In this document: in pieces, positions 6,785 to 62,180 of the stretch
Layout of the letters: the number at the start of each line of letters is the position of its first letter
How positions within the stretch are numbered: position 1 is the stretch's first letter
Assembly: GCA_964016885.1 (NCBI GenBank)
Contig: OZ024743.1
Coordinates: 162,130,001-162,194,000 of the forward strand
Source: Eledone cirrhosa
Lineage: Eukaryota
Length of the DNA stretch: 64,000 nucleotides
Direction of reading: 5' to 3'
Notes under the pieces: generated by a model
Seen by the model: the letters and a program-made list of their open reading frames with translations, nothing else
The model's database searches: none
Told to the model about the DNA's origin: nothing
Translations under genes and position numbers: made by a program

Positions 6785-6982
6785 GTGGTGGAACACTGGA
6801 AGGTAATATCCGTAGTGGTAGAGCACTCAGTCCATGGGACGAGTTAGGTACAAGTGGTTGCACAACAGTTAGTTCACCATACCGAGAACAATTGTTTCAC
6901 CTTAGCGAATCCTCAGCTGAGGATCCGCTAAGGTGAAACTATTGTTCTCAGTATGGTGAACTAACTGTTGTGTAACCACTTC
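6785..6982. mobile_element. Fold-back mini-element folded at the hammerhead core
   Basis: Palindrome centred at 6916/6917 (TCAG|CTGA). Each arm reads CTGAGGA T(C/T)C GCTAA GGT GAAA C(A/T)ATTG TT. Tail 6785-6851 contains ACTC..GAGTGCT on the minus strand. Confidence 0.8.
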
Positions 6983-7007
6983 TATATATATATATATATC
7001 TGTATAT

Positions 7008-7513
7008 AGATAAATCTACCAAAATATACGGTAGTGTCCAATCCGTATGAAGAACTCAATGTAATCCAAATATCATGAAAAGAGAAGATGTATTTAAAAT
7101 ATTTTTCGATGAAAATCGCAGGAAAACAGTCAAGATAAATTAATAAAAACAATGAATAAAAACAAAGAAACAGTTACTTATATTAAAGAATTCATCATTT
7201 TACGATCGTTTCTAGGATATATATGTGTGGGTTGGTATGTATATCATATAGATCTATGTAAACATTTTATAAACTATCAGAGGGAATATACATACCTACA
7301 CATATATATGCTGTCTTTATTATTTCTGAAGACAGCATATATATGTGTAGGTATGTATATTCCCTCTGATAGTTTGTACATTTTTTACATAGATCTATAT
7401 GATATACATACCAACCCACACATATATATCCTAGAAACGATCGTAAAATGATGAATTTTTTAATATAAGGAACTGTTTCTTTGTTTTATTCATTGTTTTT
7501 ATTAATTTAATTT
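7008..7513. mobile_element. Fold-back mini-element with long-stem-II hammerhead
   Basis: Arms ~7137-7317 and ~7329-7507, left tail, TA flanks. Same family as 33555-33899 and ~168-360. Confidence 0.85.
7316..7455 (+). ncRNA. Type I hammerhead with ~100-nt stem II
   Basis: TTTATTATTT CTGAAGA [C AG C ATATATATGTGT..GGTATGTATAT / ATATACATACC..ACACATATATAT C CT A] GAAA CGATCG TA AAATGATGAA. Confidence 0.8.
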
Positions 7514-7579
7514 ATATATATATATATATATATATATATATATATAAGCAAAGAGATATATATATATATATATATATAT

Positions 7580-7742
7580 ACACAACGGGCCTTTTCAATT
7601 TCCTTCTAACAAATTCTACTCACAAAGCGCTGGTCAATCGGAGGATATACTAGAAGATACACCACCCTTGTGCCACGCAGCCTGCTGAACCCAGTACCAA
7701 CTGGTTTCAAAGCAAAAATTCTTAATCACACAACCATTGCCT
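7580..7742 (-). mobile_element. tRNA-derived SINE (degenerate)
   Basis: tRNA-like head on the minus strand followed by ..gtgtatcttctagtat..gaccagcgctttgtgagtaga..; resembles cephalopod SINEs from memory. Confidence 0.55.
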
Positions 7743-9129
7743 GTGTCCTTTCATATGCCATGAAACACCAGCAATTGATTTGAACACCAGCAATTGATTT
7801 GAACTGAAGCTATAGTCAGACATTAATATCAGTCATCGTACCATGGTTTGTCCACACACTGTGTTTTTCTACTACAGATATCACTATATTTCTTCTTCCG
7901 ACGTCCAACTCTTCATATGTAGCAATGGTGTATACTCCAGTTTACACTGATGAATTACCGAGTTATAAACCAGTAAACAACTAATGGGTACCAAACTATC
8001 TGTTATTATGGAACTTCATTAAAACAGCTAACTTGTGCCAACTACTTTGGCACGGCTTCAACAATATCTTTTTATGCTTGAGATGAGTGAATGCTTGTGT
8101 TGCACGCCCATGTATTTTTGCCTCAGTGTCTGAGTGTTTATGTGTCAGTGTGCGTGTGTGTAAATATGTACACACATATATATATATATATATATATTTA
8201 TGTATATATATATATATATATATATATATATATATATATATATATATATGCACACATACACACATGTATACGCATGCACAGTGCACTGTGTGAGCAAATA
8301 TGCAGACATACACGCATATATATATATATATATATATTTGTATGTATGTATGTATGTATATATATATATATATATATATGCACATATATACATTTATATA
8401 CGTACAAGCATATATATATGCACGCACACGTATATACATACCTATTAGTTTTGTTTATGTTTTCGCACAAAAAGTTTATAGTGCCAATATTGAATTGCAG
8501 TGTAAAGCGTATTGGTTCTACTAATATATGCATTGCTACTTTACTAACTATGCGCACACACACACACACACACACACACACACACACACACACACACACA
8601 CACACACACACACACACACACACACACACACACACACACACACACACACACACACACACACATACTCATACGTACATCATTACTTGTACACATATATGTA
8701 CACATACGCGCATACACACACGCATAAGCGCACTTGCACCAAGTACAGAAGCACACATATGTAAATATATTTGTTTGTCTGTGTATAACATGACTGTTTT
8801 GTTTGAATGAGTTGTGTGTGTGTTCGTATGTGTGTGTGTGTGTGTGAGTCTGTCTGTATATTTGTGTCTGTGTGTGTATCTCTGAACATGTATCTAATGA
8901 AAAAGAAGGTAAAAACAAAACTAGTGTCGTTCCAATTTGGCAGAGAAACTAAAAGATACAATGCTATCGGAACTATTAGCAGGGAAGTATTGTTTAGGAA
9001 GAGGATATACTTTATCTCAAGGTGTGGTCTTTATCATATATATATATATATATATATATATATATATATATATATATATATATATATATATATATATATA
9101 TATATATATATATATATATATAAGGTCAC

Positions 9130-60140: not shown

Positions 60141-60398
60141 GTAGGAGGTGAGTTTTATTGTAGTACAATAAAGCAATGCAGATATCGGATAAGAAGCACT
60201 CTACAGTTTGTAGGACTGGAGTATACATAATATATAAGATCAAAAGATGGTTAAAATAGTTCCATGTATTTTATTATGCGCATTTCAAAAACAAATATCA
60301 TCATGCAATAATATTATTGCATGATGATATTTGTTTTTGAAATGCGCGTAATAAAATACATGGAACTATTTTAACCATCTTTTGATCTTATATATTAT
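60141..60398. mobile_element. Fold-back mini-element folded inside HHR stem II
   Basis: Same family as 54678-55102 in the opposite orientation. Centre 60312/60313. Same short and long ends. Confidence 0.88.
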
Positions 60399-60614
60399 AT
60401 ATATATATATATATATATATAAGAATTTAGCTTCGAATTTATAATATATATATATATAGATATGAAAATTTAGCTGTATACAAATATGTATGTGAATTTC
60501 ATATCTAAAGAAATACGGTATGTTTATAAATAAACATTCTGAAAGCCATAGCTGTAAATATAACCTTGACGGTCAGCGCCGCCGAGCCGTTTCTGGCAGA
60601 AACAAGGGGGACAA

Positions 60615-60656
60615 CCGTCTATGCATTTCGAACTTAAATGGTACTCGTCAGGACAA
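60615..60656 (-). ncRNA. Minimal type I hammerhead, intact core
   Basis: TTGTC CTGACGA GTAC-CATTTAA-GTTC GAAA TGCA TA GACGG. Confidence 0.82.
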
Positions 60657-61907
60657 TGTTTCCCTTTTGCTACTACCAGACTTTGAAACGGGGGAAAATA
60701 AATGTTTTTTTTTCGTCTGTATAAATGAGGTGATTAATCTCATTTGCATATGAAGCTGTATAAGTTGGCTCAATTTAAAATAGAATGACCATGGTTTTTG
60801 CACATAGAAAGTTCCCTTCAGTGGCACAAGCCAGGCCAAGGTGTTTTATTGAAGACCAACAGTCACCTATGTATATTAGTCTCCGACGATGTTGGCACCA
60901 GTAACGTATGTATATGTGTGTGTGTGTGTGTAGATTTGTGTATATTTATGTGCGTATGTATATAATTCTTTCTTTATGACACGAACTCATATAGGTCTCA
61001 TACAGCTGAGTCACATAGTTCGCACCTCTCAACTATTTCTCTTTGAAATGTTGAGAATAAAAATAAATTGATAGAAGATTCTAGATGAATTTCCTCTTTT
61101 TCGCTATAAACTCGTCAAAATATTTGTATCTCCAATTAAATTGGTTATTCTCCCGTTCAATATTTCCAATATATTCACAATGTCACTCTAAAACCATATC
61201 AATCAAAACAGAAACATAACGAAATATGTAGATCAGCTGTAATTTGAAAAATCGGTACGTTTATAGGTTTTTCTCGTATAAAAAAATAATGATTGATGTC
61301 AAAACATGAAATGTTACTCACATCTGTCATGGCATATACAATCAAAATATAAAATGTAAAGTCTAATTACTACAAGTCTCCTGATCTTCTGAACCTTTCT
61401 GCCGTAAAAAGTGTCATTGAGGTTACAATGCTTCAGCAAAAGCTGCATAGTCGGTGTCAAATACACGGTGAAATATATAGTCTGAAAGCAGTATTAAATG
61501 GTGCTCACGAAGAACACAAAGAAAAAAATATGTATTTATTATAAATGTACTTAGCTTACTTGCAGTCAAACGTGTGTTCATTGAGTGGCTAAAACATTGA
61601 ATACAAAAGTAACTGCCCTCCTCCTATTTCAATATTTTCTATATTTCATCTACTTGTCACCCACCTAGTGGATTGTCTCTCTGTTAAGCACGGGCATATA
61701 GTCTCTGTCGTCAGGTATTTTGCCCATGGCTGTCTTTGACAGCATTTAGCTGTTTTAACGGTTGTTCTAGTGATGAGTTTTCTCATTTTTATGTGTATTC
61801 AATCCAATACACTCTCGCTTCGTCTCGATCAGAGACGACATTGTTTTTCATATATATATATATATATATATATATATATATATATATATATATATATATA
61901 TATATAT

Positions 61908-62180
61908 AATAACTAGAGATTGATTAACATATAAATAAACATGAATAATCACAGGAGATAATTTTTACAAGTGTGTAACCACACATAGCTAGGTAGGTAA
62001 CTAAACTGTGATTATTCATGTTTATTTATATGTTAATCAATCTCTAGTTATTATAAAATGCTCGGACCTACTCGTTAGAATCTTAGAGCTTATTTTGCGG
62101 GTGATATGGCGCATGTCTTTCTGGCATGACACCCATAATTTTGATTTAGATTAAATTCATTTGATTTATCTTAATGTTGT
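61908..62180. mobile_element. Fold-back mini-element
   Basis: Arms ~61908-61953 and ~62007-62053, tail with GCTC..GAGC, TA flanks. Confidence 0.75.

Follow-up and report, generated by a model that had tools for sequence, protein, structure and literature searches.

Penelope-like elements (PLEs) of the Hydra clade were described by Craig et al. (2021; PMC8557442), and the accessible parts of that work attribute to them a GIY-YIG endonuclease placed C-terminally and without the CCHH motif, a hammerhead in the pseudo-long terminal repeat (pLTR), (TA)n targets, and inverted 5'-truncated copies with a tail of 30-40 bp at one end only. In a PLE of another clade, the Poseidon element of Anolis (PAc), reverse transcription has two internal start sites, which delimit the tail; RNA out to +172 is needed, both strands are extended and a protein dimer is predicted (Frangieh et al., 2024; PMC11167929). 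The available text of that paper also proposes a protein-binding motif, still unmapped, within RNA that reaches past the first start on its 3' side. The subject of this report is a small hairpin found in 64,000 nucleotides of DNA from Eledone cirrhosa (contig OZ024743.1, positions 162,130,001 to 162,194,000; this whole stretch is referred to as the window), which an earlier, sequence-only reading had described as a stem-loop in the tails of unrelated repeat families and had interpreted as a cis-acting RNA signal, for instance a template boundary. The hairpin is a genuine structured, clade-wide element and, as judged from endonuclease motifs and named consensi rather than a tree of reverse transcriptases (RTs), it is a signature of Hydra-clade PLEs, full-length copies of which mostly carry it twice in tandem, as M1 and M2, one period of which constitutes the tail.

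The families of the window share with the published Hydra-clade elements the features named above, and the hairpin itself is present in the consensus sequences of the latter (PMC8557442, as available); they differ in their tails, which are approximately 60-130 nt here, and in the first pair of the hairpin, which is mostly A-U in the window. With PAc they share two internal starts or ends that bound the tail and AT-rich targets, but PAc belongs to another clade, no binding element has been defined for it in the accessible text, its 96-nt segment lacks the motif, and its initiation falls inside an AC-rich stem loop, whereas the ends seen here lie just 5' of the hairpin (PMC11167929). The words 'hairpin' and 'stem-loop' have no occurrence in the accessible text and supplement of PMC8557442, nor is the motif mentioned in the available part of bioRxiv 10.64898/2026.07.22.740005. 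No description of the hairpin was found in Rfam or in the searchable literature, Repbase and subscription papers lying outside the scope of that search.

Structured RNAs that serve other RTs are instructive as comparisons. The epsilon element of hepadnaviruses is a bulged stem-loop that binds the RT and fixes its start site, the bulge templating protein priming; for the Hydra hairpin, by contrast, the proposed start is not within the hairpin, and priming would be from nicked DNA. Stringent LINEs, with their 3' stem-loops, and R2, with its 3' untranslated region (UTR), have cis RNA structures recognised by the element protein for target-primed reverse transcription, and these lie 5' of the start and are copied, whereas the Hydra hairpin would be situated 3' of the start, would escape copying from it and comes as two copies. 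The template boundary element of telomerase is a structured RNA that adjoins the template of a related RT and stops synthesis from the 5' side, a role that contrasts with full-length Hydra-type copies that include the whole first hairpin.

Structure and specificity of the hairpin

In its full form the hairpin comprises RCUC, an inner stem of 3-6 bp whose sequence is free, a loop, a 2-nt bulge beginning with U, GAGY and RCU. The strict motif pattern matches the window 10 times, against a mean of 0.71 (maximum 5) in 100 block-wise dinucleotide shuffles, and the frequency is thus well above that of shuffled sequence, with which the sequence-only reading had asked for a comparison. A structural descriptor gives 11 matches at 10 places against 0.58 in shuffles, and seven of nine distinct inner segments fit the stem-plus-bulge form where 0.07 would be expected. 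The eight ACTC..GAGTGCT sites listed by that reading, together with the sites at 22857-22883 and 18606-18629 (-), are all found where it had placed them. Its other GCTC..GAGC form, at 62060, is present but ends in GAGC-TTA without RCT, and its three GAGTTCT variants exist but differ, since 33602-33685 (-) is a complete long-loop form, 7051-7130 (-) has partly lost its 5' arm and 46073-46093 (-) reads ATTC/GAGT.

Folded one at a time, the window sites give weak structures (-1.7 to -8.4 kcal/mol); the claim of structure rests on covariation, a check named by the sequence-only reading, and this is strong in the inner stem. Across 40 instances selected on sequence and position alone, pairs one to three of the inner stem, drawn with a 2-nt bulge, form in 36, 36 and 33 cases, where shuffling gives means of 27.5, 19.6 and 19.1; the same test fails with a bulge of 0, 1 or 3 nt, and the inner pairs include five G-U and no A-C combinations, a bias toward the sense strand. 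In a MAFFT alignment of 33 of the 45 instances from outside the window (12 were set aside as near-duplicates, fold-backs or wrongly anchored copies), pairing holds in 93.9% of cells and 44 cells are compensatory, values that none of 500 shuffles reaches, while slid registers give 19.5-54.5% pairing. RNAalifold, unprompted, proposes the same seven pairs. The outer stem is nearly invariant in this alignment, and for that reason its pairing rests on the A-U and GTTC/GAAC variants of the window. A model built without any window sequence returns as its top eight window matches eight of the sites noted earlier (E 3e-6 to 0.47), while the sites at 6844, 18481 and 62060 and the long-loop forms escape it. 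In the 55021 family none of 36 variant positions falls within the 21 core positions (chance 0.036, a weak figure that applies among the variant rows listed).

The conserved letters of the hairpin are those of the D-arm of transfer RNA (tRNA), a likeness that may reflect origin, mimicry or chance, and the same pattern caught a tRNA-Ile gene (L231, 1511-1583, in genome bin G001) whose D-arm matches those letters exactly; such cases account for 4 of the 56 pattern matches in that bin. ARAGORN reports no tRNA in the window, and the tRNA-like short interspersed element (SINE) of the window has no significant similarity to the sites at 18481, 6844, 55393 or 54287. A tRNA-SINE head at 18481 was initially plausible but is not supported: 293 of 500 shuffles scored as high and nhmmer gave no match. 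With Rfam 15 the window gives 173 matches, and all of the 150 listed fall below gathering, nearly all being microRNA models on microsatellites or palindromes; six Hydra loci give four weak matches, none covering the hairpin. The negative control consisted of 83 chance loci, picked for the same letters in a pattern scan of viral contigs, among which there was one match to the hairpin model (E 0.46) and no strong upstream inverted arm, the best score being 35 against 67-85 at five window sites.

Assignment to the Hydra clade

A search for the motif letters in the accessible supplement of PMC8557442 led to the Hydra-clade file, and of the six Hydra consensi published there three carry the full hairpin by eye and one carries it with an outer mismatch and an AG bulge. 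In the same supplement 17 of 22 occurrences of GAGCACT lie outside the Hydra file, in Naiad and Chlamys records, where no such hairpin was seen by eye and where line breaks may hide some occurrences. A Naiad origin is rejected, as Naiad and Chlamys elements have an N-terminal endonuclease and no canonical hammerhead, whereas hammerheads are present here; Helitron and other rolling-circle ends were set aside by eye given these hammerheads and the Hydra endonucleases. The families that carry the hairpin are therefore 'unrelated', as the sequence-only reading had called them, at the level of blastn only, the hairpin being shared by Hydra-clade PLEs.

The window is microsatellite-rich animal DNA, and its one long open reading frame (ORF) has its best protein match in Octopus vulgaris (68%). 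It contains Hydra-type endonuclease fragments at 21287, 24710 and 41920, of which 21287-21583 and 41920-42249, like the motif-bearing loci elsewhere, lack CCHH and carry CxxC and CxH around a conserved E and N. The 18629 hairpin is joined to the fragment at 21287-21583 through nested inverted repeats. Within the window this linkage is to an endonuclease fragment only; in the related loci L103, L123, L127, L128 and L153, ORFs of 702-717 aa follow M2. The N-terminal RWK, the DKT and the CxCX5C linker are present in homologous proteins and related loci, and the hairpin-bearing copies of the window are without such a coding part.

Loci were also picked by protein only. A word-based search with the window endonuclease fragment for longer proteins found nothing, whereas a full HMMER search with the 41920 fragment found 2208 relatives, eight of which were aligned for the next search; of 472 metagenome stretches the 80 best were taken and, together with 21 loci from genome bins, made up 101 test loci, which are likely animal host DNA. 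Among the 101, 29 match the strict descriptor on the sense strand at a point downstream of the endonuclease (one, L091, being off position), while antisense matches number four, across three loci. Where a hammerhead and the 90 nt after it are available (n = 56), 29 loci have the hairpin, 17 end in a microsatellite ahead of the hairpin position and 10 are neither. The 31 aligned carriers fall into 24 endonuclease clusters at 70% identity, with a median identity of 50%, and hosts of the hairpin include corals, sea cucumbers and octopus. Of 21 loci picked with the other PLE protein of the window, the 19 that remain once two overlapping ones are left out gave no model match, and no Hydra endonuclease was found in viral contigs. 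One of the genome bins, G001, the source in part of loci L164-L184, is a 12-Mb bin labelled as a bacterium that holds many animal-type PLE copies and likely contains host DNA.

Insertion geometry

Masked self-comparison of the window yields about twenty long local inverted repeats. Among the 22 that were scored, 17 join a short to a long end, two are short at both ends (one of them a SINE pair), none is long at both and three are ambiguous; in the first group one arm ends at a microsatellite while the other continues for 44-173 nt. This layout is the inverted-copy-plus-tail layout that the available parts of PMC8557442 describe for PLEs, and the arrangement expected of endonuclease-positive elements, an inverted 5'-truncated copy with a tail at one end only, is thus seen in 17 of 22. 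Type I hammerheads likewise lie in the pLTR, upstream of the tail and on its strand. Cut sites at 6887 (-), 18672 (-), 19159 (-) and 54968 (+) precede a hairpin by 43-60 nt on the same strand, and from these four sites it follows that the motif lies on the sense RNA; a hammerhead core also stands 104 nt before 34681, and the exact core is absent within 130 nt before 8 of 13 sites.

The claim that the motif starts a few nt past the junction of the short arm with (TA)n stands for 8 of the 11 main sites (6844, 18629, 19099, 22857, 34681, 55021, 60222 and 62060), where the end of an inverted short arm, in (TA)n, precedes the motif by a few bases, and fails at 18481, 22584 and 55393, which have no local short arm. 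Insertion is into (TA)n, as in the Hydra clade, with the exception of the 55393 tail, which ends in (AC)n. Outside the window the breakpoints of one family (55021) were followed in four public runs, and in three of them its copies break into (TA)n at 55021 (X1, 29 contigs; X5, 2; X21, 266 reads); X6 has no 55021 break among the matches listed.

Several other arrangements were seen in the window. Hydra-type elements at 18636-23975 and 41813-43407 have long 3' UTRs whose (TA) and (TG) tracts have been hit by further PLEs, producing nested stacks. The centre of the palindrome at 6854-6979 coincides with the start of a hammerhead core (6916/6917). Inverted copies of the tRNA-like SINE, at 43534-43745 (+) and 40580-40801 (-), flank a Hydra-type insertion, and tails of palindromic families at 6190-6262 (-) and 47246-47282 (+) carry neither type of hairpin.

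Two hairpins and two ends

Elements that read through into the next unit carry M1 and M2 in tandem, 57-83 nt apart and shortly before an ATG, in 11 distinct cases, and the Hydra-1_Ajap consensus, in the part of the published record available, likewise has two hairpins. The median distance from the end of M1 to M2 is 39 nt (n = 11) and that from the end of a hairpin to the microsatellite is 35 nt (n = 28). In 7 of the 11, M2 precedes the likely start codon by 12-39 nt, the script having chosen another ATG in the remaining four, and full-length copies contain the whole of M1 at their 5' end.

In 40 pairs of read-through and terminated copies, six of which are actually long-end comparisons, the short end lies at a narrow distance before M1: an offset of 6 nt fits 29 pairs, 7 nt fits 31 and 8 nt fits 30, an offset of 0 or less fits none, and nine pairs have a lower bound of exactly 6. 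The tail-bearing ends fall 3-11 nt short of M2 in three families, compared in 10 pairwise rows. In a fourth family (L225) five copies end 5-10 nt short of it; these are five long-anchor rows kept from an 8-mer-anchor test that was otherwise mostly noise, the other families being retested. In the window an inverted tail copy at 15414-15566 (-) stops 1-10 nt before the M2-like hairpin at 11970. Because short ends stop before M1 and tail-bearing ends before M2, the PLE tail is one M1-M2 period, and the tails seen here equal the spacing of the two hairpins where this is testable.

The fixed 2-nt bulge, the second copy of the hairpin and the clade go beyond the sequence-only reading. Its central proposal, a cis-acting structured element at the junction, is upheld by covariation, by the sense-strand G-U bias and by fixed spacing to both element ends, including the spacing to junctions that it had offered as a check. 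Its suggestion of a template-boundary signal of the telomerase type, which would be a stop signal, fits poorly, as the hairpin occupies the 3' side of the junction, which is left uncopied, and M1 is present entire in full-length copies. For the latter reason a roadblock, in which bound protein would halt the RT at the upstream hairpin, is rejected as well.

Full-length copies without an upstream pLTR (L104, L173, L127 and Hydra-1_Ajap) have their 5' ends no more than about 12 nt from a hairpin, a pattern compatible with a circular template of unit length, with a transcription start or with an RNA cut; a circular template has been proposed for PLEs (PMC4209133, in the part available). In L137 (near 1202) and L146 (near 1195) the copy folds back inside M1 and continues as its reverse complement from the hairpin loop or directly past it.

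Proposed mechanism and rival explanations

The preferred explanation, to which we assign a probability of roughly 0.6, is that each hairpin binds the PLE protein and sets the start of reverse transcription about 6-8 nt 5' of itself. The hairpin would fold in the element RNA, and the protein would dock on it, nick (TA)-rich DNA and prime internally, as the Anolis PLE does in vitro. A hairpin would not be copied from the start that it sets, such that a start at M1 would leave the short end, and a start at M2 the tail-bearing end with M1 inside the tail. More speculatively, a protein dimer might use M1 and M2 of a single RNA on two nicked strands, producing a palindrome with one short and one long arm, and such coupled use is suggested by the strength of the short-plus-long asymmetry. 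A wider version, in which the tail of all endonuclease-positive clades is the spacing of two tandem docking hairpins, both gripped on one RNA by a dimer that primes both nicked strands to give the lopsided palindrome, and in which other clades have the same shape in other letters, the GUUU/AAAC hairpin of the non-Hydra element in the window (40508-40545 and 14240-14280) being a candidate example, is tentative and rather doubtful.

A number of points weigh against the docking explanation and its assignment to this clade. The precedent for docking and internal initiation comes from another clade, the role of the Hydra-clade protein here being inferred, and the Anolis 96-nt segment shows no such motif. 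Eleven of the 40 pairs misfit an offset of 6 nt, and eight have a lower bound of at least 10 (an earlier substitution or indel having broken the walk, or the match being loose), while (TA) microhomology spreads the offset into a range. The long-end test covers four families and one window case, and in L131 the ATG is preceded by one hairpin only. The 5' ends of full-length copies lie within about 8 nt of M1 in L104 and L173 and about 12 nt before M2 in L127, positions for which an RNA cut or a transcription start would account equally well. Two of the six published Hydra consensi, in the supplement as available, have no clear hairpin and another has the outer mismatch, and one window hairpin only is physically linked to a Hydra-type ORF. 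The 500-shuffle control of the 33-copy alignment ignores relatedness, and covariation in M2 alone is not significant (n = 10).

It could be that the hairpin instead directs an RNA cut 6-8 nt 5' of itself, by a host nuclease, an element protein or self-cleavage, with ordinary priming from the resulting 3' end. A single cut would account both for the 3' ends and for full-length 5' ends at or near M1 (L104 and L173, with Hydra-1_Ajap starting 2 nt before the hairpin), and the D-arm letters are also in its favour, but there is no acceptor or T arm and no tRNA in the window, the 5' ends are scattered (about -8 to +2 of M1, one at about -12 of M2), and the accessible text of PMC11167929 has the Anolis PLE initiating internally on unprocessed RNA, independently of hammerhead cleavage; overall a cut seems unlikely. 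That the hairpin acts as DNA, recognised in the donor or new copy by the GIY-YIG endonuclease, which would nick 6-8 nt upstream and resolve an intermediate, is improbable, even though Craig et al. (2021; PMC8557442) attribute the tail to endonuclease-mediated resolution and work cited by Frangieh et al. (2024; PMC11167929) found the tail of the D. virilis element to be required for endonuclease cleavage, as far as the available parts of these papers go. The latter paper places tail ends on RT start sites, a free but covarying inner stem with a spacer of 11-70 nt disfavours a site in duplex DNA, and the excess of G-U over A-C disfavours folding in first-strand cDNA.

The position of M2 just ahead of the likely start codon in 7 of 11 cases raises the question of whether the hairpins are mainly control elements of the 5' UTR, acting as translational operators or near the promoter, with the ends lying nearby for another reason. 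Bulged hairpins bound by their own product are familiar from RNA phages. Such a function leaves unexplained why both ends track two hairpins at the same offset across families, and as the main role it is very unlikely; an additional translational role is compatible with docking. A relic of a tRNA or SINE that lacks any function, or a chance product of AT-rich sequence, would suit the D-arm letters and the site at 18481, which fits neither structure nor geometry, but is largely refuted by covariation and position and is scarcely credible given the excess over shuffles, the many compensatory changes, the results from the viral loci and the retention of the motif across the 24 endonuclease clusters. 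Docking, with initiation just 5' of each hairpin, is the explanation preferred here.

Other features of the window

The coordinates of the hairpins and associated features are collected in Table 1. The insertion around 41920-42249 has no hairpin because both its ends are short.

Table 1. Hairpins and Hydra-type endonuclease fragments in the window
Feature	Position	Strand	Remarks
Tail hairpin M1, bulge of 1 nt instead of 2	6822..6844	-	Hammerhead cut about 43 nt upstream; short arm ends near 6982
M1 variant, compensated outer pair GTTC/GAAC	11854..11880	+	Short ends of the family stop 3-8 nt before it
M2-like second hairpin	11970..11992	+	Same read-through copy as 11854; weak model match
Sequence match only	18481..18502	+	No inner stem, upstream hammerhead core or local short arm; not attributed to any element
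Tail hairpin M1, GCTC/GAGC form	18606..18629	-	Hammerhead cut 18672 (-); short arm ends near 23978
Tail hairpin M1	19071..19099	-	Hammerhead cut 19159 (-); palindrome 19111-19433
Broken C-terminal Hydra-type GIY-YIG endonuclease fragment (CxxC..E..N..CxH)	21287..21583	+	Same element as 18629 hairpin
Tail hairpin of a minimal insertion akin to the 34681 family	22584..22606	+	No local short arm
Tail hairpin M1	22857..22883	+	Palindrome 22743-22848; short end near 22741
Degenerate M1	27082..27127	+	Directly after short-arm end of 26468-27070
Long-loop hairpin, 5-bp inner stem	33602..33685	-	Relative at 7051-7130 (-) without part of the 5' arm
Tail hairpin M1	34681..34703	+	Palindrome 34306-34671
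Degenerate M1	34840..34892	-	Directly after short-arm end of 34904-35344
Hydra-type endonuclease fragment, search query	41920..42249	+	Insertion short at both ends
Degenerate hairpin, ATTC/GAGT, 2-bp inner stem	46073..46093	-	Tail ends in (TA)n
Descriptor match absent from the sequence-only reading	54245..54287	-	No short arm found
Tail hairpin M1	55021..55048	+	Hammerhead cut 54968 (+); palindrome 54685-55006; (TA)n breakpoint of copies outside the window
Hairpin with 6-bp inner stem	55393..55420	+	Tail ends in (AC)n; no adjoining short arm
Second 55021-family copy	60195..60222	-	Palindrome 60237-60388
Tail hairpin, GCTC/GAGC form without RCT	62060..62092	+	Palindrome 61912-62048

The window also holds a near full-length PLE outside the Hydra clade, with RT and GIY-YIG, at about 36950-39994, which appears Neptune- or Nematis-like by its linker and CCHH motifs, as these are described in the available parts of PMC8557442, rather than by a tree. 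The tail of this PLE and that of a relative (40508-40545 (+) and 14240-14280 (+)) can form a hairpin of the same shape with GTTT/AAAC, a 2-nt 3' bulge and a 3-bp inner stem in which one pair is compensated; these are two copies only, and RNAfold favours the structure in neither.

Significance

How PLE RNA is recognised, why the tail is present at one end only and why the palindromes are lopsided are questions stated as open in the accessible parts of PMC8557442 and PMC11167929. The hairpin offers a defined candidate of 25 nt and a quantitative rule, that ends fall about 6-8 nt before each of two hairpins, and the two-copy rule makes the origin of the PLE tail directly testable. In genomes the hairpin serves as a marker of the clade and as a rule for calling the ends of PLE fragments that are non-coding and abundant. 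Telomerase has its closest relatives in the RTs of PLEs, and a second mode of RNA recognition in this lineage would consequently be of wider interest. If the tentative extension of docking to all endonuclease-positive clades were true, the hairpin would be a portable 25-nt address allowing target-primed insertion of any RNA placed 5' of it.

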